Virus record (IMG/VR): IMGVR_UViG_3300023283_000017 | Span: 3,370 to 67,369 of that record | From: a virus | Lineage: Duplodnaviria; Caudoviricetes | Length of the DNA: 64,000 nt | Strand: one strand, 5' to 3' | Shown here: one piece after another, positions 6,816 through 61,804 of the stretch | How positions within the stretch are numbered: position 1 is the first letter of the stretch | Layout of the letters: each line of letters opens with the position of its first letter | Notes under the pieces: model-generated | Told to the model about the DNA's origin: nothing | Databases searched by the model: none | The model's input: the letters and a program-made list of their open reading frames with translations, nothing else | Made by a program: the position numbers and the translations under genes

Positions 6816-6929
6816 GATGTTCTCCTTGGTGCAGCGGCTTAGCGTGCTGCGCAGCCTTTTGGGTTTCGGGGTTGTGCCGCGTCGTCATAGGGCACAGTGA
6901 ACCGCCGCCTGAGCGACGAGATGAGCGCG

Positions 6930-12497: not shown

Positions 12498-12699
12498 CTC
12501 GTTGCTCCCATTCACCGTTGATTTTCTGCTTAACGTCTACCACACCACTCTGGGCGAGTTCAAGCACGACTTGAGAAAGCTTCCACAGCACGCGGTTGCG
12601 TTTGAGGTGATCACCGAAGATCGACACCTGCGCAGTACCGTCGAGCGACACTACGAACAGGAAGTCAGGGTCTTCGTCCGGTAGTTCTTCTTCCATCAC
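12472..12699 (-). CDS. Small hypothetical protein
   Basis: ORF track; start overlaps the polymerase stop. Confidence 0.5.
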   Translation of the reverse strand: MMEEELPDEDPDFLFVVSLDGTAQVSIFGDHLKRNRVLWKLSQVVLELAQSGVVDVKQKINGEWEQRDDWRRLAH

Positions 12700-14690
12700 T
12701 TTGCCTCATCCCAGTTGCTACCCAAGGTTCCGTCAGCTAGAACAGGCACCTCCAGCGTCACTGCCTGCTCCATGATGTGTCGAAGCTCCTCAAACGCCTC
12801 GTGCCCCTCTTTCGTGCGAGGCACTGACGAGTTCAGTTCATCATGAACTGTGAGGTGCGGCACGAGCACATTGAACACGCCGGCGTCCCACGCGTCGACC
12901 ATGGCCTTCTTCATCAGGTCGGCGGCCGAACCTTGAAGCAGGGCGTTTAGCGACTTGTGAGTGAACGACCGACGTGGGCGCTTCGTGACGCGGCGCGTGC
13001 TGAGAACGGCGTCTAGCAGCTTCTCGTCCACAAGCTCCTTGACAACCTCACCCTTGTCGCCCCGGTACTCTACCTCGAAAGTCGGGAACCGACGCTTTCG
13101 ACCGAGTATGGTGCGGATAAAGCCGCGCGACGCAGCAGCGCTCGACGCGCGCTCGAGCATGGATCGGATGAAAGGCGCGTTCGCGTGGAACTTGTCCATG
13201 ATCGCTTGCGCGTCGGACATCTCGACGCCGAGCGACGCAGCCAGCTTCGGCACCCCCATCCCGTAGACGACGCCGAAGTTCACGTTCTTCGCCTGCTTGC
13301 GAGGCACACCAGTCAGGTCAGACGCCATCTGGTGGAAGTCGGTGCTCGGGTCCTGACGGTACATGCGAACTGCTTCCGAGGCGTCGATACCTTTGGTGCT
13401 GGCCGCGTAGTGCACGAGCAGTCGGTACTCGATCTGCGACCAGTCGAGCGACCCCCATTGCATCCCCTCTTCCGGTATGAACATGGAGCGCATGAGCGGT
13501 CCGAGTTCAGGATGGCGAGCCGGGATGTTCTGCAGGTTCGGGTTAGAGCTCGAGAAACGACCGGACACGGTCCCTGACTCGTCTGACTTGAGCTGGTTGA
13601 ACATGCAGTGGATGCGGCCGCCAACGTGCCCCTGCAGGATGTAGGAGTCGATGAAGGTGCCGGCCGTTTTGTCATACTCGCGCGCCCGCATGATTAGTTG
13701 CGCGATCTCGTGGTTGCACGCCTTCAGCCAGTCTTTCTTGAATGATGGCTTGCCCGTGGCTGTCCTCTCGTACTCAAGTCCTAGCGCGTCGAAGCCAACA
13801 GAAATCGAGTCCGCCGACCAGATGTCCACCGACGTGCCCGCCATGTCGCGCAGCTTTGCCTCGATCTCGGCCTTTTCCTTGCGAAGGCGATCCGACGAGT
13901 CCTCGGCTTTCTTGACGTTGACGCGCACCCCTTGGTAGCGCATTTCCAGGAGCAGCGGCGTCAATGCGGCTTCGATACGGAAAAGCTCGAGCAGTTCGTC
14001 CTGTTCAAGCTTCGACTGCTGCTTGTCGAAGACCCGCCAAGCGAGCGTTGCGTCATCCTCGGCGTAGACAGATGCGTGCGACGGATGCACCCGGTGCATG
14101 TTCTCGATGTAGCCTTGGCCGTAGAGCTTGACCAACTCGTCGTAGGACTTGGTGAGGTTCAGGTAGTCTTTGCAAAGCGCATCGAGCTTGTAGGTTAGGC
14201 GGTTCTCGTCGATAAGGGGCTCTGCTATCTGCACGTCGCGGAACTTCGCCTTCGGGAACACGATGCCGTGACGCGTGCGCAGCCAGTCTAGGTCGTACTG
14301 CAGGTTGGCGCCGACGATCTCACCTTCGAACTTCTGAGCTTCCTCGGCAAGCCGAGCGTAGAACTTGTCCGGGTCTTCGACGTTCGGGCCGACCTCGTGC
14401 TGAGTTGGGTAGTAACACGCGTCTTGTTCAGCATAGGCTATGGACACACCGACGACCTTGCCGTCCTTACGATGCGCACCGGGCCCGAACTGGTCGATGC
14501 CCGGGTCATGCGCCTCGATGTCCAGGCCAATGCGCTTCAGGCCGTCGATAGAGCGGTACTCAGGAGGTGCGTAGTCGCGGGGGAGCTCTCGAGGCACCTC
14601 AAAGTGCTTTCGCGCTTTCGCGGGTGTCTTCTGCTGCGGTTGAACATGCGCGAGATCAAAGAGACCTCCGTCGACTAGGCCGACCATCAA
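12696..14690 (-). CDS. polA: Family A DNA polymerase with a 3'-5' exonuclease domain
   Basis: LDIEA (Exo I), ANLQYD, TVSGRFSSSNPNLQNIP, DWSQIEYR (motif A), KQAKNVNFGVVYG (B), VHDEL (C). Confidence 0.96.
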   Translation of the reverse strand: MMVGLVDGGLFDLAHVQPQQKTPAKARKHFEVPRELPRDYAPPEYRSIDGLKRIGLDIEAHDPGIDQFGPGAHRKDGKVVGVSIAYAEQDACYYPTQHEVGPNVEDPDKFYARLAEEAQKFEGEIVGANLQYDLDWLRTRHGIVFPKAKFRDVQIAEPLIDENRLTYKLDALCKDYLNLTKSYDELVKLYGQGYIENMHRVHPSHASVYAEDDATLAWRVFDKQQSKLEQDELLELFRIEAALTPLLLEMRYQGVRVNVKKAEDSSDRLRKEKAEIEAKLRDMAGTSVDIWSADSISVGFDALGLEYERTATGKPSFKKDWLKACNHEIAQLIMRAREYDKTAGTFIDSYILQGHVGGRIHCMFNQLKSDESGTVSGRFSSSNPNLQNIPARHPELGPLMRSMFIPEEGMQWGSLDWSQIEYRLLVHYAASTKGIDASEAVRMYRQDPSTDFHQMASDLTGVPRKQAKNVNFGVVYGMGVPKLAASLGVEMSDAQAIMDKFHANAPFIRSMLERASSAAASRGFIRTILGRKRRFPTFEVEYRGDKGEVVKELVDEKLLDAVLSTRRVTKRPRRSFTHKSLNALLQGSAADLMKKAMVDAWDAGVFNVLVPHLTVHDELNSSVPRTKEGHEAFEELRHIMEQAVTLEVPVLADGTLGSNWDEAK

Positions 14691-15505
14691 GCCATCCCCG
14701 CATACAGGTGAGCTTGAACCTGGAACCGCAGACCGTTCGCGACCGCGTAGCGGGCAGTGTGCTCGTGGTTCGCTTGGTTGGTAGTCAGGTCAAGCAGCCC
14801 GGGTTCCCAGAAGGAGATGACTTCCTCGACAGTCGAGCGCTGCTCCATGGACGTCGCGTTGCTCGTTCGCATGACTTTCGCTTTCCGAGGTTCGCGCGCG
14901 TAGACGTTCATAGGCGAGACGAACACGTCGCCCGGGCTACTTAGGTTCCAGTCGAGCGCCCAGTCGGGAATGGACGAGTAAGGGGACGATGGGTCCGCGC
15001 ACATCACGAACTTGAGACTGTCCGCGCGCTCGAGAACCTCATCTCGCGGCGTCAAGTAGCGCGTGGCCACGCCTCGCTTCTCCATGCACTTCGGCGACAC
15101 GACTAGGTGGACATCGTCGGGAAGCGGTTGCAGAAGCGTGCCGTTGCTCTCGATCTGGATGTTGCGCCACAGCCCAACTTGCGTCTCGAGCCACTCGCCG
15201 AGCTCTTTCTGGAGCAGCGGCTCGCCGCCGGTGATCACCAAGACGTAGTCCTTCGCTTCGAGCGGCGTCTCGAATACCAGGTCGCCCAGATGGTCGTTTA
15301 AACGGTCGAAAGTCAGCCAGTCTCCGGAGTCGAAATAAGTGTCGCAGAAAGAGCACGCCAGGTTGCACTTCGCGAGGCGCACGAAGACGGCAGGAAGGCC
15401 CGAAAATGGACCTTCCCCTTGAAGCGTGACGAAGCAGGAAGTCACGTGGAGAACGCCTTCTTCGGCAAAGTGTCGCTGACCCACTCGCTCGTTGAGGCCG
15501 AACAT
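14687..15505 (-). CDS. queE: 7-carboxy-7-deazaguanine synthase (radical SAM)
   Basis: TLQGEG...AVFVRLAKCNLACSFCDT (CxxxCxxC), ITGGEPLLQ, IESNGT, VSPK. Confidence 0.93.
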   Translation of the reverse strand: MFGLNERVGQRHFAEEGVLHVTSCFVTLQGEGPFSGLPAVFVRLAKCNLACSFCDTYFDSGDWLTFDRLNDHLGDLVFETPLEAKDYVLVITGGEPLLQKELGEWLETQVGLWRNIQIESNGTLLQPLPDDVHLVVSPKCMEKRGVATRYLTPRDEVLERADSLKFVMCADPSSPYSSIPDWALDWNLSSPGDVFVSPMNVYAREPRKAKVMRTSNATSMEQRSTVEEVISFWEPGLLDLTTNQANHEHTARYAVANGLRFQVQAHLYAGMA

Positions 15506-15898: not shown

Positions 15899-16873
15899 TT
15901 ACTCCTGTCGCGTGCGGCCTGCGATGAGGCCAAGTGAGCCCCGGGCCGTGCGAAACGGAACCGGAGACGGATAGCGGTCAAACCCGATTTCTTGAGCTCG
16001 GGACATGACCGCGGTGAGATCCTTCGTGCCGAACAGGGCCGAGTTCTCGAGGTCACCGAGATTGGTGTCTAGGGACTCGCTGTGCTCGATGTGACGCAGC
16101 GTAGTGTAGATGTGGTTCGGGTTGATCTCGATGAAGCCGTCTGAGTAACCGACGGCCGACATGAAAGCACTACGGTACTGGTCACCGATGCTCTGCAACC
16201 CGGTCCAGTCGTTGACGCTGTCCACCATGTGGACAGCCTGATCTGGCATTTCAGGGTTCATGCGAGCCGCATGCGCCCAAGACCCGTCTCGGAACTCGAG
16301 CAAGACGCTGCGCTTGTCATGCCCCCACGCCTCGAGATCCGCGCGTCTGAGGCGGATGTAATCGACGACAGCCCGTGGTAGGGTGACACCGTGGAGACCC
16401 GAGCTTTGCCGCAGCTCTGAGCGCAGCAGAACGGTGCTATTCGTTGCGGTGATGCGGCAGCCATCGAACCGCGCGCTACTCGACCAAGGACGCGACGGAT
16501 GACCTTCGGTGAAAGGCCAGACGTCGTCTAGCGCGTCGCCCAGGTCTTCGGGGTCTGCAATAGGAGATGTCTCGATGTCTGGCTTGGTCACTTCGCGCTC
16601 AGCGGAAAGTCGCTTCAGCCGAGTGTTTCCGTTCTTCGACTTCAGGGTGACGTAGGACGCCCCGACTGACAGCTCAGCATCCGGGACCTTGCGGAAGGCG
16701 AAGTCGAGGTCAACTCCCGTGACAGAGAAGTCCTTGGCATCGACCGGTATGCTGACCGCCATGATCGCGTTCTTCGCTTGCAGTCGACCCTCCTTGACCG
16801 TCACAGCGGCGTCCGCATCAAGCACGGCTTGGAAATCGCACGCGTGCTTGACTAGCGCAAATTGTTCTCGCAT
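15899..16873 (-). CDS. Putative sliding clamp (DNA pol III beta-like)
   Basis: 324 aa of repeated beta/alpha character; ITATNSTVL and TLPRAVV resemble beta-clamp segments; lies among clamp-loader, polymerase and exonuclease genes. Confidence 0.5.
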   Translation of the reverse strand: MREQFALVKHACDFQAVLDADAAVTVKEGRLQAKNAIMAVSIPVDAKDFSVTGVDLDFAFRKVPDAELSVGASYVTLKSKNGNTRLKRLSAEREVTKPDIETSPIADPEDLGDALDDVWPFTEGHPSRPWSSSARFDGCRITATNSTVLLRSELRQSSGLHGVTLPRAVVDYIRLRRADLEAWGHDKRSVLLEFRDGSWAHAARMNPEMPDQAVHMVDSVNDWTGLQSIGDQYRSAFMSAVGYSDGFIEINPNHIYTTLRHIEHSESLDTNLGDLENSALFGTKDLTAVMSRAQEIGFDRYPSPVPFRTARGSLGLIAGRTRQE

Positions 16874-16884
16874 GCTCGTCTCCG

Positions 16885-17520
16885 TTACGTGCTCGGCCAG
16901 TTCTCTGGTAGGCGCCAGAGGTTGTGGCCGGCGTCCTCAATCGCCCACAGCACGGCGGCACAAGCCTCGACGTCCACCATCGCATCATGCGCCCCTTCAA
17001 AGCCCATTGGATCGACCAGCGCGCGGTATGACTCGTCTAGAGTCGGGAACTTGAAACCGTACTTGCCGGGCAACTGTAGCACCGGCTCGAGGGTCTTCAT
17101 AGTGCAGAACTTGGGTGTTTCCCAATATGCTTGTTGAGGCGCCGCGATGCGCGAGTAAGCGGCGCGCATGATCGGATCATCAAACCCCATGTTGTGCGCC
17201 ACGATGCGGTCCGCTTTCTTCACCATGTTGTTGAACGCGGCGACGCCGACCTTGTAGGTCGTCCCTGCTCGGTCGACCGTCTCTTGAGTGATCCCGGAGT
17301 CGATGAAGAACTTCTCGGTTGGTATGGTCGCAACGCCGCCGTGCGCGTCGAGCGGTTCCATGAAGTAAGAGCAGTGCGCCACGGGACGACGGCCCCAGTA
17401 AAGGATAGCGGCGATCTGCACAAGCGACGGCTCTTGAGTGAGCGGTACGTTCTTTCCTTTAGGTCGCATGCCGTTGGTCTCTGTGTCAAAGACGAGCGTG
17501 GTCACATCAGTCATGAACAC
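16885..17520 (-). CDS. DEDDh 3'-5' exonuclease (DnaQ/epsilon-like)
   Basis: FDTETNG, LVQIAA, VAHNMGFD, CTMKT, AHDAMVDV. Confidence 0.88.
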   Translation of the reverse strand: MFMTDVTTLVFDTETNGMRPKGKNVPLTQEPSLVQIAAILYWGRRPVAHCSYFMEPLDAHGGVATIPTEKFFIDSGITQETVDRAGTTYKVGVAAFNNMVKKADRIVAHNMGFDDPIMRAAYSRIAAPQQAYWETPKFCTMKTLEPVLQLPGKYGFKFPTLDESYRALVDPMGFEGAHDAMVDVEACAAVLWAIEDAGHNLWRLPENWPST

Positions 17521-17941
17521 CCTCTTTGTGCTTGGTGGCGCGCGACTCAGAGTCCTGCCGCCAGTCTCCCCACTCTCGCAACTCGTTCTTGTCGCGTTTG
17601 GTCGTGAGCACGCTCAACGCACATTGCGCGATGAAGTCGCTCGTAGGTTCGCCGTAGCGCACAACGATCACCCCATCTTTGACGAGTTTAGGCTCCTGAT
17701 CCAAACCCAAGATCCGGTAGTGCTCTCGAAGATACTCGCGGACCGAACGCAGCAGGCCGTCCTGCGCGAGTAAGACGATGTCCGCCCATTCTCCTGCGCG
17801 GTCATCATGGGTCTTGGCGGATTCAACTTCGTTAATCTCCTCCTCGATGTGTGCAAGCACGCCGGCGCGGCGCTCCCCCGGACCGAACGCCATGCGCCCC
17901 CACGCACATTGCCGTGCCAAGAAATCAAAATGGTCAGACAT
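17507..17941 (-). CDS. DUF550/MazZ-type dATP/dGTP pyrophosphohydrolase
   Basis: AFGPGERRAGVLAHIEEEINE...EWADIVLLAQDG...KRDKNELREWGDWR. Confidence 0.8.
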   Translation of the reverse strand: MSDHFDFLARQCAWGRMAFGPGERRAGVLAHIEEEINEVESAKTHDDRAGEWADIVLLAQDGLLRSVREYLREHYRILGLDQEPKLVKDGVIVVRYGEPTSDFIAQCALSVLTTKRDKNELREWGDWRQDSESRATKHKEGVHD

Positions 17942-19142
17942 AGTAGGTGAGCTCCTCTTCGGCTCTCGTCACCACGGTGTAGAGCCAGCGTCTGCGTTGT
18001 AGTCGGTCGTTTACGCGCATCCGGTCGTCCGCGATGACGACGTGGCGCCATTGAGAGCCCTGCGACTTGTGCCCGGTGATGCAGTAGCCGTAGTCGAAAG
18101 CTTGAACGCCATCAGCACGAAGGAAAATGGTGCGCTGCTCATAGTTCTCCTGGAAGAGCCCTGGGTCGCAGATGATCTGACCTTTCGTCCCATCGTAGTC
18201 GACTTCCAGGTGCAGCAAGTTGCCTTTCTTGAACGAGTCACGCGCGGCACGGCACGTCACCCCATTCAAGTATCCCTTATCATGGTCGTTGCGGCGACAG
18301 ATCAGCTTGTCGTCGGCGAGTGGGTACTTGTCGGTGAATCCGATGAACTTGCGCATGGCGCGAGTAAGGCGGTGCCTCGATTGGTTAGAGCCCGTAATGA
18401 CCTGCCCCGCGTTCAGCGCAACCTCCATATCCCACTCAGACTTGCGCTTGATCCTGACCAACCCGTCGCCGAACTCACCGAACTTCACACTGCCGCCTTG
18501 CCTGATCTCGTTCGCGAGCCAGATAATGGGGCTGTCAGCGGCTTGCCGGTGAATCTCCTCGAGGACGAAGTCGTAGTCGTTAGATGTCAGGTGCGCCTTG
18601 CCCTTGACAGGAGGAAGCTGCCCTGGGTCACCCAGATACAGGACCGGTACTCCATAGGACTCGAGGTCCTTGCCCATACGAGCATCTACCATGGAGGACT
18701 CGTCAACTATGACAAGATCAGCATCCTCGATCTCGCAGTCTGATTTTCGCTCAAAAACAGCAGACGATTCTTCCGTTGCTTTGTTGAGCTCACGTTGCCA
18801 GGTGCTCAGCTTCTGCTGGTCGGGTTGCTGCTTCTCGGCTTCCTGCTCTATCAAGCGTTGCAGCTCTTCGACCTGCTCCTGACCGACGTTTCCTTTCGGC
18901 TGGTAGATCAGCTTGTGGATCGTCGTCGCGCCAGGGCATCCTTTCTCGCGAAGAACAGAGGCGGCCTTACCGGTGAAAGCCGCGAACTTGACCTCACCGC
19001 CTAGGCTTTCCGCGATGTGACGTGCGAGCGTCGTCTTACCAGTGCCTGCGTATCCGCCTAGTGCGAAACGCGTCGTTTCCCTGTTCTTGAGCCACCTGTC
19101 GATCTCGAGTAAGGCGCGTTCCTGACCCGGTGACCAATCCAT
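17934..19142 (-). CDS. SF1B Dda/RecD2-like helicase
   Basis: GYAGTGKTT, AFTGKAA, TIHKLIY, DESSMV, GDPGQLPPV, EIHRQA, ITGHKSQGSQW; ATG overlaps the dpdA stop (TAATG). Confidence 0.9.
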   Translation of the reverse strand: MDWSPGQERALLEIDRWLKNRETTRFALGGYAGTGKTTLARHIAESLGGEVKFAAFTGKAASVLREKGCPGATTIHKLIYQPKGNVGQEQVEELQRLIEQEAEKQQPDQQKLSTWQRELNKATEESSAVFERKSDCEIEDADLVIVDESSMVDARMGKDLESYGVPVLYLGDPGQLPPVKGKAHLTSNDYDFVLEEIHRQAADSPIIWLANEIRQGGSVKFGEFGDGLVRIKRKSEWDMEVALNAGQVITGSNQSRHRLTRAMRKFIGFTDKYPLADDKLICRRNDHDKGYLNGVTCRAARDSFKKGNLLHLEVDYDGTKGQIICDPGLFQENYEQRTIFLRADGVQAFDYGYCITGHKSQGSQWRHVVIADDRMRVNDRLQRRRWLYTVVTRAEEELTYYV

Positions 19143-20443
19143 TATAGTCCTCCGAACAGGAACTGCTGTGCTGGTTCCTTCTTGTAGTCCTTCGCCCACT
19201 CAGCGAACACAACGAACTCAGCCATGCAGATCAGGTTGCGAACGCGCGAGTCCCACCGGCAGACCTCGAAGGGAAAGCCTAAGCGCTCGACGCGCTCCCG
19301 AACGTAGGCCTGCTGCTCCTCGGGTAGAGTCCAGAAGTGCTTGCCTTGGTCAGCCAAGTGTCCTCCGAACAAAGGAAGAGCGTCCTCATGAACACCGGCG
19401 CGAATGAGGGTGTCCGAAACGTCCGCGCAGGACGTATCTACGGTGCACCCGAGCTCTGCTGCGCTGACAAGCGACCCGTCACTCGTGCGCGCCCGAGCCT
19501 CGACGCTGATGCTCACCCCTTCGAGCGAGACAAAGTAGTTCATATAGTGCGGCTCTGCTTTCCGACCTCCGGTGTGCGCTTGGTCATGGAAGATGTCTAT
19601 CATACCGAAGCCGCCGTGCTGCACCCACGCCGCGGAGTCGCCCGAGTACCAAGGCACGTTGCGCACCATTCGATTACCGGTCGTCGCGAGGCCGTGGGTG
19701 ACGATGTGCGGCCAACGGTCCTTGATGATTGAGTGCGCGTCGCGTGACCAGTCGACACGCTTGCCCTCTGGTAGGTCGTTGCGCGGCGAGACACAGATGT
19801 AGTTGTGTTTGCCGTCTACCTGCTCGACGCACTCACCGAGACGGTCGAAGCTCTCCCCTTGGTGAAAGACGGGCAGGATGATGTTGCCGAACTCCTCGGT
19901 CAGGAGCTTGTAGTTGATATCTGAGATGCGGACCGCTTCCTCGATTTCTTCAGGGGTCGGATCGCGGCCACGTTCCCCTGGGATGACGTCCAGGTTGATG
20001 CCCCAGATCTCATCGAACAGGCCGTCTGCGGCTTCGATGAACCGGGAGTACTTGCGCTTCACGTCGTCGACTGTGACGGTCTCACCTTTGTTCCAAGCCG
20101 TGAAGGCGCCGCTATCAAGCAGGATGGCTCTTGGGTAGGGCTTGCCGCGCAACGTCTGGCAGACGCGCTCCAGGATCTCAGTCGTGTCCCAGTCTTCCGA
20201 GCGCGCAAACTCCTTCTGCTGTTCGCGTCGCTGCGCGTCGCGCTTCTTGATGTTATCGACGTGCTGAGGATACGCTTGCAAGTAAGCGTCCGCGTCGAGG
20301 ATCCCAGCGTGAAGGTCCTTTACCCACCGCAGGACAGCTTTCTCATAGTCCCCGTGCATCGAGAAAAGCCGGTGCGTGTTCATACGGTTCTCGACGGTCT
20401 GGTAAGGATCGTTGCGCGGCGTGCCGGACATATACAGATGCAC
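19142..20443 (-). CDS. dpdA: DpdA-type DNA-guanine transglycosylase (TGT fold)
   Basis: LDSGAFTAW, NLDVIPG, PVFHQGE, HGLA, PWYSGDSAAW motifs; context of que genes. Confidence 0.85.
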   Translation of the reverse strand: MHLYMSGTPRNDPYQTVENRMNTHRLFSMHGDYEKAVLRWVKDLHAGILDADAYLQAYPQHVDNIKKRDAQRREQQKEFARSEDWDTTEILERVCQTLRGKPYPRAILLDSGAFTAWNKGETVTVDDVKRKYSRFIEAADGLFDEIWGINLDVIPGERGRDPTPEEIEEAVRISDINYKLLTEEFGNIILPVFHQGESFDRLGECVEQVDGKHNYICVSPRNDLPEGKRVDWSRDAHSIIKDRWPHIVTHGLATTGNRMVRNVPWYSGDSAAWVQHGGFGMIDIFHDQAHTGGRKAEPHYMNYFVSLEGVSISVEARARTSDGSLVSAAELGCTVDTSCADVSDTLIRAGVHEDALPLFGGHLADQGKHFWTLPEEQQAYVRERVERLGFPFEVCRWDSRVRNLICMAEFVVFAEWAKDYKKEPAQQFLFGGL

Positions 20444-20711: not shown

Positions 20712-21185
20712 TCAGTGCGGTTCGGGCATATGCGCGTCCGAGCCGCGCTGGTACTCCATGCTAGGATTGATCGAGATGCCGCCGCGAGGAGTGAACTCGC
20801 CGGTGACGCGCATCCACTGTGGATCGAGGAGCGTCACGAGATCGCCCAGAATGCGCGCTACGCAGGCCTCGTGGAAGTCTTGGTGGTTGCGGAAGGAAGC
20901 GAGATAGAGCTTCCAGGACTTCGACTCGACGCACCACGAGAGCGGGACGTACTCGACGACGATCCGAGCGAAGTCCGGTTGACCGGTCTTCGGGCACAGC
21001 GACGTGAACTCCTTGGGGTCCTCATAGCCACCGAGCTGGATCACCGGAAGACCGTTCGCGAGAAGGTTCATCGGGTTGCGGAAACGCTCGAGAAGGTCGC
21101 TGTCGGCCGGCTTGAAGTTACCGAAGTCGGACGACCCCGACCCGAGGTGCTTGAGGCTGGTTGCGTCGGAAGACGTTTTGCTCAT
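20712..21185 (-). CDS. queF: preQ0 reductase, unimodular type
   Basis: [15 protein letters not shown] (catalytic Cys/Asp), QueF motif [18 protein letters not shown]. Confidence 0.92.
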
Positions 21186-21189
21186 GTTG

Positions 21190-21843
21190 TTACTCCAGGA
21201 ACAGAGGGTGTTGATGGGGTCCGGTCTCGACGTATTCGATGGCCGGCTCTAGTCGATGGGGCACCTCGAAGTACTCCATCCACGTTCGCAAGCGACGCAG
21301 CCGCCTTGCCGCGTCAGCCGTCGTCTCCGCGTCAGCGTCTGTCATCTCGCACAGTGCCCCACGCTCGCCGTCGATCCTGAGCATCGCCCAGCCACGACCG
21401 AAGAGCTTTTGGGTGAGATGGTTCGGCTTGTCGTCCGCCGCGAACTCGAGAAAGCGCATGAGCTCGAAGTCGCAGGAGAACGGTTGCAGGCCGTGAATGC
21501 CGCACCGACCGAACAACTCGCCTTCCTCGCGGATGACGTTTCGGCAGTGGTAGCTCTCGTGATCCGATTGCAAGTCGGACCAGATGAGGAAGCTCTTGCC
21601 ATTCACCTCGACGTAGCGCTCAACGAGGTCTAGCGGAGGCTTGTCCTCGGTAGGCAGGTAGTCGAGCGAGAAGCGAGGACAGCAACCGGCGCAGCGGGCG
21701 GGACACGTGAAGCCTCGGAAGATCTTAGGCGACACGCGGACGGCTTTCGGCGTGTAGGTCTTGCCTTTGTAGGTAAAAGGCTGCGCCGCCATGACGGCAA
21801 AGTAGGTGCCGACGACCTTGTCCAGTGTGTCGCGCTGCGGCAT
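21190..21843 (-). CDS. Cys-rich putative Fe-S protein (YkgJ/FliB CxxCxxCC-like)
   Basis: [11 protein letters not shown] and C...[11 protein letters not shown]; 8 Cys; ATG overlaps the folE stop. Confidence 0.7.
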
Positions 21844-22787
21844 CAGATTGGCGTCGTCGTCTTGGCTAGCATCAGGAACTCCTGGCGAGCATCAGGTTCC
21901 TGCTTGATGCAACCACGCAGAGCGGAGGTCGTCGTCGAGCACCCACGGTGCTGGATCCCTCGCGACTCAACACACATATGGCGTGCGCGCAACAGGACGC
22001 CTACTCCCTTCGGTTCGAGGCAGTCTTGAAGGGCGTCCGCGATCTGGTTGGTCAATCGCTCCTGCACCTGCAGGCGCCTCGCGTAGAGGTCGACCAGTCG
22101 GTTCATCTTGGAAAGTCCCAGGACCTTACCATTCGGGATATAGGCGACCGACGCGAGGCCGAAGAAAGGCGCCATATGATGCTCACAGTGCGAGTAGAAC
22201 GGGATGTCTACCTCGATGACCATCTCGTCTACGCCCTCGGCACCATCCGTGAACACCTTGAGGACTTCCTTCGGGTCGCGAGTGTAGCCGGAGAACCAGG
22301 TCTCCCATGCTTTGACGACACGCCGCGGCGTCTCGAGCAGTCCTTCACGCGTCGCGTCGTCGCCGACGACCTCGAGGGAACGCGTCACCACATCGAACGC
22401 GCTCTCGTCGTGGTCGTCGATGACTTCCCATGGGAACACGAGCCAGTCGGGGTTCATGACAAGACCGACCTTGTTCTCGTGCTGAGGGCTTTTCGCGAAC
22501 AAGGCGAAGAACGGCTTGCCGGCGGCGCGGTGCCGAGTCATTGTCGACCCCGAGTCGATCAGGTCGTCCACAATGACATCTGCCTCCGCGAGATCACTCG
22601 TCGCCATGATGTTGACCTTGGTCGACCGCTCAGCTGCGCGCTGCAAGGCGAGCAACGCGGGCACCCCACCGCGAGGCACTGGATATGCCTTGATCTCGGC
22701 AGGCGCAAGAGCGGCGCGCTCTATGCGGTTCATGAGTAGAGAGGCCGCTTGCGCGACCTCCCCATAGGTGACGATGCGCTTGGTCAC
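21843..22787 (-). CDS. folE: Fusion of an N-terminal purine phosphoribosyltransferase (Gpt-like) and a C-terminal GTP cyclohydrolase I
   Basis: PRT: [26 protein letters not shown]. FolE: [33 protein letters not shown]. Confidence 0.92.
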
Positions 22788-23629
22788 GCAGGCACCTCCT
22801 CGAGCTCTGCTTCCTGCACGAGCGAGATGTAGTCGTCGACCGTCCAGGTGTTGCGGTTGCCCGCAGGCCCACGTTCCACGACCTCGCGCGCAACGTCGTA
22901 GTTCGACGACGCGGGCAGCTCACCCAGCGACTCGCACGCCGCGCGGAGCCAGATCGGGTCCGCGACACCTGCGGCCTCGAACCCCCGCTCCCGGAGCTTA
23001 GTCGCGTGGTCGGCGCCCGTGGGCGGATACTGACCATCGTAGGCGGTATGGGAGTAGGCGAGCGCGTTCATGCACCCAGGCAGGCGACGCGCGAGGTGGA
23101 CGCTCTCCGCCTTGGTCAGATCCATCAGCGGGGTGTGGATCTTGCAGGGGCCGATGGCGCCGTCTTGACCCGTGAACGTCCCGCGATTGATAGTCTCCTC
23201 GAGCGAGTCGATGAAGGTCTGACGGCAGTCGGGATAGCCGCCGAAGTCCTCCTGGCAGACACCGGTCACCATGTTGTGGCAGCCGTTGACGTAGGCGCGG
23301 TTCGCCGCGATGGTCAGGAACAGCTGGTTCCGCATGGGAACGAAGGTCTTCTCGAGGCCGCCGGGCAGGTTGCCGTCCTCATACTGCTCGAGGGCGTTGT
23401 CCGACACGAGCGGCGAGGTGCCTTTCAGGATGGGGCCAAGTTCGATGACCTCGTGGGAGTCGGCTTTGGCGAGTTGCGCGATCTTCACCGCCGCGTCGAT
23501 CTCGGCACGGTGGCGCTGGTTGTAGTCGAAGGTGACCGCGTGAACCTCGAGGAAGTTCTGCTTTGCCCAGAAGAGGGCGGTGGTCGAGTCCTGCCCACCG
23601 GACAGGACGACGAGTGCTTTGCTAGTCAT
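22784..23629 (-). CDS. queC: 7-cyano-7-deazaguanine synthase, variant without the Zn cysteines
   Basis: [34 protein letters not shown]; start set at MTSKAL. Confidence 0.92.
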
Positions 23630-23667
23630 GAAGTGGTTTTCCTTTCCTGGTACCCACCACAGGTGAA

Positions 23668-23683
23668 GCACGTTTAAACGTGC
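23668..23683. promoter_or_regulatory. Perfect 16-bp palindrome GCACGTTTAAACGTGC upstream of queC
   Basis: Seen directly; member of the GTTTAAAC family. Confidence 0.7.
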
Positions 23684-23764
23684 GATTGAACGTGAAACGC
23701 GGCGCCACGTAAGCGCCGCGTCAGTCACGTTATGGTGCGCGCCCCGCGGGGCGCAACCGATGAG

Positions 23765-24703: not shown

Positions 24704-25150
24704 TTACCTTTTGAAGACGGCCGAGTTCGCTCCGTGCTCCATCACCTCGACAGAAGCCAAGCGAACGCGGTCGCCGTAGCCGGCATCCTTGAGCCAAATC
24801 TCTGTGGTCTCGAAGATGAGCTCCGCGAACGCCTCGCACCCGTTAGCGTAGGTGACTACCATGTCGATGATGCCGCGGGCGTCGGCCTCCCGGAACCAGT
24901 CGATGTGCGGGTCATCATGAGCGACCAGCGTCTTGTGGTCGAAGGTGTCCTCGAGCCGACCTTTGAGCGTCTTGAGCGACCCGAAGTCGACCACCCAGTT
25001 GCGCTCGTCGAGGCTGTCGGCCTCGAAGACAAACTTGATCGCCAGGGCGTAGCCATGAAGGAAGCGGCAGTGGGAATCCGCTCGCCACTGACGGAAAGCG
25101 GCGGAGAGGCCGAGGTTGTGCCCGTAGGTCTTCGTCGACTGGTAGGTCAT
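24704..25150 (-). CDS. queD: 6-carboxytetrahydropterin synthase
   Basis: SHCRFLHGY, WVVDFG, FDHKTL, VMEH. Confidence 0.9.
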   Translation of the reverse strand: MTYQSTKTYGHNLGLSAAFRQWRADSHCRFLHGYALAIKFVFEADSLDERNWVVDFGSLKTLKGRLEDTFDHKTLVAHDDPHIDWFREADARGIIDMVVTYANGCEAFAELIFETTEIWLKDAGYGDRVRLASVEVMEHGANSAVFKR

Positions 25151-25734
25151 CAGAGGTGCTCCTTGAGATTCAGCTCACCCCAGTGGGTGAACCAGGTGAT
25201 GCCGTTCGCACTGGCGTCTGAGCGCTGCCGGCTGTTGTGCGACGTTTGCCGCATGAAGGTTTTGTGCCCCGCACGGACCCCGATCAACGCGTTCTTGAGG
25301 TTGTCCTCAACCCAGATGCAGGGAGGGTTGAACGCGCGAAGAATCTGCTCCTTCGATTGACCGAGGTCGAGGCAGATGACGGAGTCGAAGACGTCCCCAA
25401 AGTGCTTCTGCAGGTTTGCTTTGCGCATCTGCACTGTAAACCAGTCGCTAGAGCAGGAGGTTACGACGTGCAGGCGAGCCCCTCCTTCATACAAAGAGGC
25501 GATGGCTGGTTCGGCACCCTCTACCGGTGGTAGGTCACCGAACGCGCGCGACGAGTTGAAGTCTTTGATTAGCCGGGCCGTATGTTGAGGATCCGTGCCG
25601 AGCCAGTCGTCCAGGACCCACTCCTGCGGACCACGCGGACAGATGTAGCGTTCAAGTGTGCTGCTGCAGTGGGCCTTGAACCCTTCGAGCCAGTTCAGAA
25701 GAACGTCATCGCAGTCAAGAAGAACAGTTTTCAC
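25150..25734 (-). CDS. HAD-family 5'(3')-deoxynucleotidase-like hydrolase
   Basis: LLDCDDVL (DxD), VTS, WVEDNLKN. Confidence 0.8.
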   Translation of the reverse strand: MKTVLLDCDDVLLNWLEGFKAHCSSTLERYICPRGPQEWVLDDWLGTDPQHTARLIKDFNSSRAFGDLPPVEGAEPAIASLYEGGARLHVVTSCSSDWFTVQMRKANLQKHFGDVFDSVICLDLGQSKEQILRAFNPPCIWVEDNLKNALIGVRAGHKTFMRQTSHNSRQRSDASANGITWFTHWGELNLKEHL

Positions 25735-59914: not shown

Positions 59915-61804
59915 TCACTCGTCGCACGAGCGAGTGCCCGTGCTAGGGTCATAGTAACACGCGCCAGCCTCCACGTCCACTTGTTCTTTTTCGGCTTCGG
60001 GGACCACGTCGTCGAGAGACCGCATGATCCCGAACCGCTTGCCGTCGAGTCGGAAGGTGGTGCAGCCTTTCGCGCCTGACTTCCAGGCCGACAAGTAGAC
60101 ATCCTTGAACTCCTCGAACCCAACCGCGCTGCCGACGTTGATGGTTTTCGAGATCGACGAGTCAACAAACTGCTGCGCCGCGGCATAGACGCGGATATGA
60201 TCTTGGACGGACAGGTCGTCGGCTCGACGACCGCGGACTCCAAATTCACGGACGCCGTAGTCGTCTATCTCGAAGTAGGACTTGCTGACACCGTCCTCGT
60301 TGATGATCTCACGCACCGTCGAGTAGGAGAAAACCGGCTCGATACCCGACGACATATTGTCCGCGGTCAAGGAGATCGTCCCGGTCGGAGCGATAGAAGT
60401 CAAGTGGCTGTTGCGAATGCCGTGGGCACGGATCAGCTTGATCACGTCATCGTCTAGCACACCCGAGTTGACGAACTGGCTGTCCAGGAACCGGCTGTCG
60501 TAAAGCGGAAACGGACCTTTCTCTGCCGCCAGCTTCGCCGACGCTCGGTAGCACTCGTTGACGAGCACGCGGAGGATCTCCGACTGCTTCTTCAGGTATG
60601 CGCCCGAGCCATATGGAAAGCCCATCGCCTCGATGGCGTTCGCCATCCCCGTCACGCCAAGTCCCATACGGCGCTTGTCCTTCGCCTCTTGTTCCTGCTG
60701 CGCGAGAGGATAGACGGCATCGTCGATAACATTGTCCATCATGCGCACAACGCCTGGGATGTCGGCCTTAAACGCCTCGTAGTCGAAGTGGTACTCTCCG
60801 CCCCACTTGCGGATGTACTTCGGAGGCGCGAAGGAGCCGAGAAGGCACGCGCCATAGGGAGGCAGGGGCTGCTCGCCGCAGGGGTTGGTGGCTGCGATAT
60901 GCTCGCAGTAATGGAGATTGTTCATCTGGTTGATCCGGTCGATGAACAGGACGCCGGGTTCGGCCCAGTCCCACGTCGCCGACATGAGCTTGTCCCATAG
61001 GTGCCGCGCCTCGACGCGACGCACCACCTGTCCATCAAAGACGAGGTCGAAGCAGTCGCCATTCTCTACGGCCTCGAGGAACTTGTCGGTAACAGCGACC
61101 GACACGTTGAACGCCGACAGGCGGTTCTGGATCGACACCTTCTGCGCTAGATCGACGATGAAGTCCTCGAGCTCTGAGAATACCGCCAGGCGCGTCCGAC
61201 CTTCCTCGCTTTCGTCCTTCTCGAGTTCGGCGCGCTTCATGGCGAGAAGCATCTTCGCCTTGCCGGTGTCTTCTTCGAGGGCGGTCGTCTTTGCGTCGAT
61301 AAACTCCTCGATGTCTGGATGGTCGACGCGCAGCACAGCCATCTGAGCACCGCGGCGACCGCCGGCAGACCTTACCGTCCTGCAGGACGCGTCATAGATC
61401 TGCATGAAAGAAACAGCGCCCGAGGCCGTCGACCGCAGGCTCTCGATGAAGGCGCCACGCCACCGCAGCGTCGAGAAATCGTAGCCGATGCCTCCACCCA
61501 TGCGCATGGTGAGAAACGCTTCCTTGACCTTGTCGAGGATGCTGCTCGAGTCGTCTTGGATCGTGCCAGAGACGAAGCAGTTGTGCGCGCAGATGTGCAT
61601 GGGCGAGCCGACTGCGCGTTGCACGCGGCCGGCCGGTATGAACAGTTGATGGAGCAGCGTTAGGTAGACGTCGCGACGGTGGTCCTCGCTGTCGGCAAGG
61701 GTGTCCGCTATGCGGGCACACATCGCCTCGAAGGGTTCGTCTGGAGACACCCTATATTTCTGGACGTGCTGATCAATAGAGACAGGGTGGCTCGGGCCAT
61801 ACAT
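59915..61804 (-). CDS. nrdJ: Class II (B12-dependent) ribonucleotide reductase
   Basis: PAGR, NCFV, GGGIG, RRGA, TNPCGEQ, RRMGLG, IAPTGT, C-terminal C...C; no beta-subunit gene seen. Confidence 0.92.
   Translation of the reverse strand: MYGPSHPVSIDQHVQKYRVSPDEPFEAMCARIADTLADSEDHRRDVYLTLLHQLFIPAGRVQRAVGSPMHICAHNCFVSGTIQDDSSSILDKVKEAFLTMRMGGGIGYDFSTLRWRGAFIESLRSTASGAVSFMQIYDASCRTVRSAGGRRGAQMAVLRVDHPDIEEFIDAKTTALEEDTGKAKMLLAMKRAELEKDESEEGRTRLAVFSELEDFIVDLAQKVSIQNRLSAFNVSVAVTDKFLEAVENGDCFDLVFDGQVVRRVEARHLWDKLMSATWDWAEPGVLFIDRINQMNNLHYCEHIAATNPCGEQPLPPYGACLLGSFAPPKYIRKWGGEYHFDYEAFKADIPGVVRMMDNVIDDAVYPLAQQEQEAKDKRRMGLGVTGMANAIEAMGFPYGSGAYLKKQSEILRVLVNECYRASAKLAAEKGPFPLYDSRFLDSQFVNSGVLDDDVIKLIRAHGIRNSHLTSIAPTGTISLTADNMSSGIEPVFSYSTVREIINEDGVSKSYFEIDDYGVREFGVRGRRADDLSVQDHIRVYAAAQQFVDSSISKTINVGSAVGFEEFKDVYLSAWKSGAKGCTTFRLDGKRFGIMRSLDDVVPEAEKEQVDVEAGACYYDPSTGTRSCDE

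Follow-up and report, generated by a model that had tools for sequence, protein, structure and literature searches.

We analysed a 64-kb stretch of DNA (the window) from the IMG/VR virus record IMGVR_UViG_3300023283_000017, a Caudoviricetes genome of 67,369 bases with direct terminal repeats and rated 100% complete, and found a gene, named here PRT::folE, that joins a phosphoribosyltransferase (PRT) domain to GTP cyclohydrolase I (FolE). As judged from sequence comparison and modelled fold, the N-terminal 122 residues of its product are clearly a phage-specific, loop-less derivative of the bacterial Gpt/XGPRT-type PRTs. Gpt-derived PRTs of this kind are tied to FolE, fused or adjacent, in at least six unrelated phage lineages (see below). 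One polypeptide would hold two enzymes of the phage pathway for 7-deazaguanine, a protective modified DNA base; the pathway has been described so far as FolE, QueD, QueE, QueC and DpdA with the optional members QueF, Gat-QueC, DpdL, DpdM and DpdN. We propose, with a probability of about 0.5, that the PRT domain is a guanine salvage enzyme that removes the base released by DpdA and refills the GTP pool for FolE.

The PRT::folE open reading frame (ORF) occupies window positions 21843-22787 on the minus strand, as do all the window features described below, and encodes 314 amino acids (aa) from a GTG start to a stop codon at 21843-21845. A preliminary description of the window had these coordinates exactly right but missed the strand: the plus-strand frame over the same positions is full of stops, and a plus-strand reading was rejected for this reason. 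A Shine-Dalgarno sequence, GAGGAGG (22795-22801), precedes the GTG by 7 nucleotides (nt). The gene is tightly packed between its neighbours, its GTG start overlapping the TGA stop of queC as GTGA and its stop sharing 1 nt with the ATG of a 217-aa DpdM-like Cys-cluster gene; the latter is translationally coupled to PRT::folE. An identical 314-aa protein (P0002) is on record in public data, with its source not listed and possibly from the same assembly, and a second contig encodes a fused protein of 314 aa (P0003) that is 80% identical to that of the window. Because of these two proteins the fusion is not an assembly artefact.

The N-terminal domain (residues 1-122; 22422-22787) scored below the cut-offs of the available family models, with 13.2 bits against 26.3 for PF00156 of Pfam and 21.5 bits against 138 for the NCBIfam xanthine PRT model NF006613, and a single-sequence phmmer search of the PDB gave a weak match (0.005). 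A family profile, built from 52 members, was needed to detect its homology. When compared with the PDB, this profile matched the Pyrococcus horikoshii purine PRT 1VDM (2e-16), the xanthine and xanthine-guanine PRT (XPRT/XGPRT) chains of Yersinia and E. coli (3e-15 to 9e-14) and, less strongly than XGPRT at 3e-15, the Sulfolobus GpT-2 protein 4Z1O (1.3e-10), with the hypoxanthine PRTs ranking well behind the XPRT/XGPRT chains. The fold search with a model of the full-length protein (predicted local distance difference test, pLDDT, 92.5; predicted template modelling score, pTM, 0.77) returned FolE entries only, and the N-terminal domain was modelled alone for that reason. The AlphaFold model of the isolated domain (pLDDT 93.6) had E. 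coli XGPRT (4jls/1nul/1a95) as its best PDB fold match, with a probability of 1.00 and a template modelling (TM) score of 0.6-0.7, and hhalign aligned the domain to E. coli Gpt with an E-value of 4.9e-10. On the basis of family profile, fold match and alignment we place the domain in the Gpt class despite its sub-cut-off scores, in agreement with the Gpt-type call of the preliminary description.

The alignment to Gpt of E. coli MG1655 runs through all the active-site elements, and their conservation was followed in 40 fused homologues. In the pyrophosphate (PPi) loop VPRGG (residues 37-41; 22665-22679), R39 pairs with Gpt R37 and is an Arg in 39 of the 40 homologues, with both Gly present in all of them. 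The 12-residue motif binding phosphoribosyl pyrophosphate (PRPP) (residues 71-82; 22542-22577), whose 11-residue core spans residues 72-82, pairs D74/D75 with D88/D89, D78 with D92 and S79-T82 with T93-T96, i.e., SGST with TGGT of Gpt; D75, D78, G80 and T82 are found in 40/40. K99 (22491-22493) corresponds to Gpt K115 (Lys in 39/40). In the C-terminal motif WLVFPWE (residues 115-121; 22425-22445), W115 pairs with Gpt W134 and P119-E121 with P138-D140 (PWE with PWD), and W115, W120 and E121 are present in all 40. The three motifs that the preliminary description had noticed near the N-terminus, VPRGG, the PRPP motif and WLVFPWE, were all found in place. Altogether R39, G40, G41, D74, D75, D78, G80, T82, K99, W115, W120 and E121 are invariant or nearly so, in domains that share only ~38-53% identity, save one relative at 72%. 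Degeneration of the PRPP-binding loop in homologues, named beforehand as a sign against a PRT, was not seen, and neither the PPi loop nor the Trp, Lys and Asp positions departed from near invariance. D78 aligns with D92 of Gpt, the third acidic residue of the PRPP motif and the equivalent of D137 of human hypoxanthine-guanine PRT (HGPRT), which acts on the purine N7. By analogy to Gpt and HGPRT structures we take D78 to be the general base, K99 to bind O6 and W115 to stack on the base. An acidic interdomain linker (residues 123-133; 22389-22421), where the pLDDT of the full-length model drops to ~76, connects this domain to FolE.

With Gpt/XGPRT (E. coli 1NUL, 1A95 and 4JLS; Yersinia pestis 6KP5 and 6KQC) and with 1VDM, the domain thus shares the type I PRT fold, collinear up to the C-terminal W-x-x-x-P-W-(D/E), together with the RGG of the PPi loop, the PRPP motif DD-x-x-D-(S/T)-G-x-T, the Lys and the stacking Trp. 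Unlike these enzymes it is joined to FolE, scores under the Pfam and NCBIfam cut-offs, is only ~122 aa long as compared with 152, and has no mobile loop. The deletion takes out the Gpt segment of about residues 61-78, R69 among them, which connects strand 2 to the PRPP motif, and makes this region 13-22 residues shorter. RGG and DD lie 35 residues apart in the window's domain; the spacing is 29-40 in the fused homologues (40 proteins) and 23-41 over the 71 measurable viral loci, whereas E. coli Gpt has 51 and cellular Gpts have 51-60. The preliminary description had overlooked this loss of a catalytic loop. The domain defines a minimal, loop-less PRT that would be simple to assay.

The remainder of the protein (residues 134-314; 21846-22388) had been called an intact FolE, and all comparisons bear this out. 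PF01227 matched residues 134-308 over profile positions 5-178 of 179 (E 3e-69; 232.5 bits against a cut-off of 27), and the NCBIfam equivalog model TIGR00063 was passed with 218.4 bits against 181.6. Foldseek comparison of the model retrieved the FolE of Mycobacterium tuberculosis, Thermus thermophilus and human (E ~1e-21; target TM 0.85-0.9). C201, H203, H204 and C272, which we take to be the FolE Zn-binding and catalytic residues, are invariant in the 40 homologues. The C-terminal ~180 residues are an ordinary FolE, an enzyme that opens the route to preQ0/preQ1 by converting GTP to dihydroneopterin triphosphate.

Among cultured phages, the closest to the window are Pseudanabaena phage Pan1 and Dinoroseobacter phages R5C and R26L, whose gene set is largely common with that of the window, in a partly different order. 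Their FolE has 187-193 aa and stands alone, without PRT, whereas the window's gene has 133 extra N-terminal residues. An extra 197-aa gene of Pan1 was considered as an unfused PRT and ruled out (hhalign probability 0.2). The window's FolE domain is 84-86% identical to the unfused FolEs of the Pan1/R5C-type phages, 85% identical to that of the fused P0003, and only 65-70% identical to those of other fused proteins. It follows that the PRT is an add-on to a FolE that was not re-tooled, and that the PRT module was gained or lost recently in this phage group. A FolE re-tooled to take GMP directly, with the fusion acting as a channel, was rejected on the same identity to unfused FolEs and on the match to the equivalog model.

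The statement of the preliminary description that FolE is normally stand-alone fails for a sizeable set of public phage genomes, in which the fusion is present but unannotated. The survey across phage genomes that it had proposed was carried out on 50,697 cultured-phage records. FolE was matched in 405 of them, and 34 of these carry the mini-PRT, in every case inside the folE frame and with GTP cyclohydrolase as the sole annotation; of the 405, about 340 have no PRT of this kind. The fused phages include Nipunavirus members (PaMx25, NP1, JG012 and others), Vibrio phage VpKK5 and its relatives, Xanthomonas phage DoCa3, Stenotrophomonas phage vB_SM_ytsc_ply2008005c with Pseudomonas and Variovorax relatives, and Sphingomonas phage MMDA13. 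PaMx25/NP1/JG012, VpKK5, vB_SM_ytsc_ply2008005c and MMDA13 have the same two-domain architecture at 50-57% identity (tblastn) and differ from the window in phage lineage, in gene order and in end products related to Gat-QueC or plain QueC. Four inspected lineages showed the order queE-queC-queD-PRT::folE-dpdA, with differing queC or queF variants. The PRT pocket is unchanged across the end products expected from queF plus the DpdM-like gene (window), Gat-QueC (PaMx25), plain QueC (the Stenotrophomonas phage) and QueF-L (MMDA13). In PaMx25 (NC_041953.1; locus L003, 6865-7795) the RefSeq record shows the fused gene as two, folE (gp37) and, in another frame, a 'hypothetical protein' (gp38). The PRT domain is spanned from locus position 6902 by one tblastn piece that lies in the frame of folE, for which reason the annotation looks wrong. 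Dozens of public phage genomes gain a corrected annotation from the survey.

Among 80 IMG/VR loci examined, 73 are fused (69 detected by script and four in which the FolE match lay a few bases past the computed ORF end), and the other seven carry the PRT as a separate gene of 120-160 aa within the deazaguanine cluster, four of them directly beside folE. DpdA was found in 30 of 32 viral loci whose flanks reach at least 5 kb in each direction. The two remaining loci, L083 (fused) and L091 (separate adjacent gene), had no match to six DpdA queries within flanks of at least 5 kb; they may have a divergent transglycosylase, or none. A word-indexed protein search with the N-terminal domain yielded three proteins and an exhaustive search of 1.84 billion representative proteins yielded 239 clusters; architectures were taken from the best 151 of the 239 and from the three. 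FolE was found in 56 of this set, some with inteins and some truncated at contig ends, and no other fusion partner was found among the best 151 of the 239 clusters and the three, bar one QueD. Two PRT::FolE proteins, P0141 (583 aa) and P0181 (585 aa), carry an intein with Hint and HNH domains inside the FolE domain. P0269 (263 aa) has QueD (PTPS) fused upstream of the mini-PRT and is probably truncated; a QueD::PRT::FolE triple fusion may exist.

Prokaryotic genomes were scanned with a 10-sequence query, one genome per species over 185,579 species, giving counts that are lower bounds. At least one fused copy occurs among the matches listed, on a 2.7-Mb chromosome of a Dehalococcoidia metagenome-assembled genome (L093, 7950-8858), where it follows three large proteins of unknown function and precedes two carboxylesterases; neither queC/D/E nor dpdA lies in the 8 kb to each side of it. 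The other 52 matches listed are nearly all long-looped like cellular Gpts, with at most two more that look short-looped; judged by the matches listed, the loop-less PRT domain is almost exclusively a phage feature. A mini-PRT of 141 aa that stands alone (P0122; L006/L007, 7001-7426), 57% identical to the PaMx25 N-terminal domain, was found on phage contigs of 38-44 kb, where its gene adjoins one of the Acb2/Tad1-hairpin family. P0122 may have a different role, possibly counter-defence.

More distant relatives were reached through fold and profile comparisons. The best viral fold match of the window's domain was a 142-aa 'phosphoribosyl transferase' of Cellulophaga phage phiST, homologous to it by profile comparison (hhalign E 3.6e-21), and a tblastn search with the phiST protein revealed wider relatives. 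In the Cellulophaga phages phiST (L010, 28218-28646), phi13:1 and phi19:2 the PRT is a separate gene, ~19 kb from FolE/QueE/QueD in phiST. It lies directly upstream of FolE in the deazaguanine cluster of the Flavobacterium immuto phages (immuto_2-6A; L149, 6980-7375), near a radical-SAM gene in Campylobacter Firehammervirus-type phages including CP220 (L148, 6992-7405), and between queE and queD/folE in Synechococcus phage BUCT-ZZ01 (L151, 4908-5369). In Brevundimonas phages (MaInes; L150, 5983-6468) FolE is followed by the PRT, with genes for a deoxynucleoside monophosphate (dNMP) kinase and for ribonucleotide reductase (RNR) next to the pair. A thymidylate-kinase-like gene is part of the immuto cluster. 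The PRTs of phiST, immuto_2-6A and CP220 share RGG, DD-x-x-D and W-x-x-(F/Y)-P-W-(E/D) with the window's domain and, unlike it, are separate genes. They keep three acidic residues including the D78 counterpart; the loop is long in phiST and absent in immuto. These three phages are reported to replace all deoxyguanosine (dG) by 7-deazaguanine, using DpdA3, for which tests were attempted and failed (PMC10516641). Each phage group for which replacement of all dG is reported carries a predicted Gpt-like PRT homologous to that of the window.

In the proposed salvage route, each DpdA event would free one guanine, and one GTP would be spent at FolE. The PRT would convert guanine (perhaps xanthine or hypoxanthine) and PRPP to GMP and PPi, clearing a free base that DpdA-type enzymes could otherwise put back into DNA, and the GMP would return to the GTP pool drained by FolE through host guanylate kinase and nucleoside diphosphate (NDP) kinase. 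Since two kinase steps separate the two activities, the fusion would ensure co-expression at a fixed ratio and not direct channelling. Bacterial DpdA exchanges [14C]guanine into DNA (PMC10164549), which implies that free guanine competes with the deazaguanine base. Guanine would fit as a common substrate because the pocket does not differ between phages whose end products do, and also because the N7-directed Asp is invariant and the PRT is linked specifically to FolE, a GTP consumer. The PRTs of the complete-replacement phages would fit salvage too, since guanine release is largest there. We infer from these sequence features that the domain is catalytically active, uses guanine and has the physiological role just outlined. 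Salvage of DpdA-freed guanine had been one of two inferences in the preliminary description; DpdA in nearly all well-flanked loci, the FolE link, the constant pocket and the invariant Asp make it the better supported of the two.

The demand for GTP can be estimated. DpdA1 modification has a reported upper range of 25-30% (PMC10516641). From the genome length and a GC content of ~60% we calculate ~40,000 G in each copy, and by our estimate modification at 25-30% with a burst of 50-100 would consume about a million GTP in order of magnitude. We estimate this amount to be comparable to the GTP pool of a cell. If the domain is a guanine sink and recycler, it would explain both how such a cost is afforded and how re-insertion of guanine by DpdA is stopped, and it would serve well where high modification levels are to be engineered.

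Several observations weigh against guanine salvage. The mobile loop matters for catalysis in HGPRTs, and the corresponding segment is missing in every viral member, i.e., in the fused homologues and the viral loci measured; by analogy, a loop-less PRT domain may be slow or serve only in ligand binding. The close relatives Pan1, R5C and R26L manage without a PRT domain. Channelling does not explain the fusion, because GMP is not the substrate of FolE, and the stand-alone P0122 gene has no deazaguanine gene in the 7 kb to each side of it. In addition, the window encodes a MazZ-like dATP/dGTP pyrophosphohydrolase, which would trim the dGTP pool and may not suit a GTP-sparing role.

The second inference of the preliminary description was that preQ0 or preQ1 is activated to a nucleotide for the phage polymerase. 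In a wider form this would be a PRT acting on deazapurines in the manner of TubE/ToyH, by which 7-carboxy-7-deazaguanine (CDG), preQ0 or preQ1 and PRPP would give a ribonucleotide, then a deoxynucleoside triphosphate (dNTP) for the polymerase or a nucleotide-level intermediate. We regard it as possible but unlikely. It has a precedent, not cited in the preliminary description, in the tubercidin and toyocamycin clusters, where, as in the window, purine-type PRTs are encoded with FolE, QueD and QueE homologues: in vitro, the PRPP transferase TubE (194 aa) is specific for CDG, and ToyH is its predicted preQ0 counterpart (PMC6112128). TubE belongs to the same broad Gpt/GpT class as the window's domain, as judged via its nearest PDB relative, 4Z1O; our profile does match 4Z1O but ranks XGPRT and 1VDM above it. 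TubE and ToyH differ from the window's domain as stand-alone proteins of ~190 aa in Streptomyces antibiotic clusters. Unlike those systems, the window's genome has no inosine monophosphate dehydrogenase (IMPDH)-family reductase and no nucleotide kinases, while a HAD nucleotidase and RNR are present. The complete 67-kb genome gave no match to PF00625, PF00334, PF02223 or PF01712 (guanylate, NDP, thymidylate and deoxynucleoside kinases) nor to PF00478, which would detect a ToyE/TubD-like IMPDH-family gene. As the genome encodes none of these kinases, either nucleotide route must use those of the host.

The phages with complete replacement lend this deazapurine route support, since all three groups (phiST, immuto_2-6A and CP220) have homologues of the domain, complete replacement is a typical mark of changes made in the nucleotide pool, and the DpdA3 tests failed (PMC10516641). 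The kinase and RNR genes near the immuto and Brevundimonas PRTs, and the MazZ-like pyrophosphohydrolase, HAD nucleotidase and RNR of the window, would also fit. Against it, DpdA is encoded in the window and in nearly all the flanked loci, the pocket is constant across end products, and the partner of the domain is FolE, the first enzyme of the pathway, rather than the maker of the base to be ribosylated. Close relatives without the domain do not need such a route, and the invariant D78, as general base at N7, has no counterpart atom to act on, as 7-deazapurines have no N7. The wider proposal that FolE-linked phage PRTs make CDG, preQ0 or preQ1 nucleotides, and that 7-deazaguanine enters at least some genomes via the dNTP pool and the polymerase, above all those with complete dG replacement, seems to us rather doubtful. 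If true, it would reopen the question of pre- versus post-replication incorporation and contradict the current view of insertion as always a post-replicative reaction of DpdA.

It is improbable, in our view, that the domain only senses a ligand, binding guanine, GMP or PRPP without turnover and tuning FolE with an outcome like that of GFRP on mammalian GTP cyclohydrolase I or of the PRPP-binding PRT fold of PurR. PRT folds that bind PRPP without catalysis are known, as in Bacillus subtilis PurR, and the loss of the mobile loop in every viral member, the linkage almost exclusively to FolE and the confident full-length model would be consistent with such a role. However, the catalytic residues on both the PRPP and the base side, including the general-base Asp, are strictly kept. 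The loop-less members encoded as separate 120-160-aa genes and the phiST homologue with its full-length loop look like independent enzymes, and the FolE of the relatives, 84-86% identical, works without the domain. The least probable reading, general purine salvage unrelated to DpdA in which bases from degraded host nucleic acid would give GTP for FolE and replication, draws on the same homology and conservation as guanine salvage and on the Dehalococcoidia and P0122 copies without nearby deazaguanine genes, but nearly all viral copies lie within a deazaguanine cluster with DpdA and ~340 of the 405 FolE-bearing records have no such PRT; it is a broader version of the DpdA-linked salvage reading rather than a true alternative.

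The word 'phosphoribosyl' is absent from the main text of the central phage 7-deazaguanine papers, and no paper joining DpdA or Queuovirinae with PRT salvage was found among the open-access papers searched. The recurrent pairing of PRT and FolE points to an overlooked step in the pathway, most likely guanine recycling if the sequence evidence is read as above.

The genes around PRT::folE include further members of the modification pathway. Upstream of it lie queC (22784-23728; PF06508, 3e-52), queD (24704-25150; PF01242, 3.5e-17) and the gene of the HAD/NT5C-like nucleotidase (25150-25734). On its other side are the DpdM-like gene (21190-21843), queF (20712-21185; PF14489, 1.8e-32) and dpdA, encoding a DpdA-type DNA guanine transglycosylase (19142-20443; phrog_887, 5.7e-55) that aligns with the product of the Pan1 'queuosine tRNA-ribosyltransferase' gene. 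The DpdM-like protein (217 aa) is 65% identical to the Pan1 'YkgJ family cysteine cluster protein' and contains CPARCAGCC, fitting the CxxxCxxCC pattern described for DpdM (PMC10516641). Together with queF, this gene suggests that the end product of the phage may be methylated dPreQ1 (mdPreQ1). Further along are genes for a RecD-like helicase (17934-19199), the MazZ-like dATP/dGTP pyrophosphohydrolase (17507-17941; PF04447), an epsilon-like exonuclease (16885-17520) and a clamp-like protein (15899-16873), followed by queE (14687-15505; phrog_2076, 1.2e-46; radical SAM) and polA (12696-14690). PurZ was not found in the genome. The RNR gene (~60056-61582, also on the minus strand) is located elsewhere in the genome.

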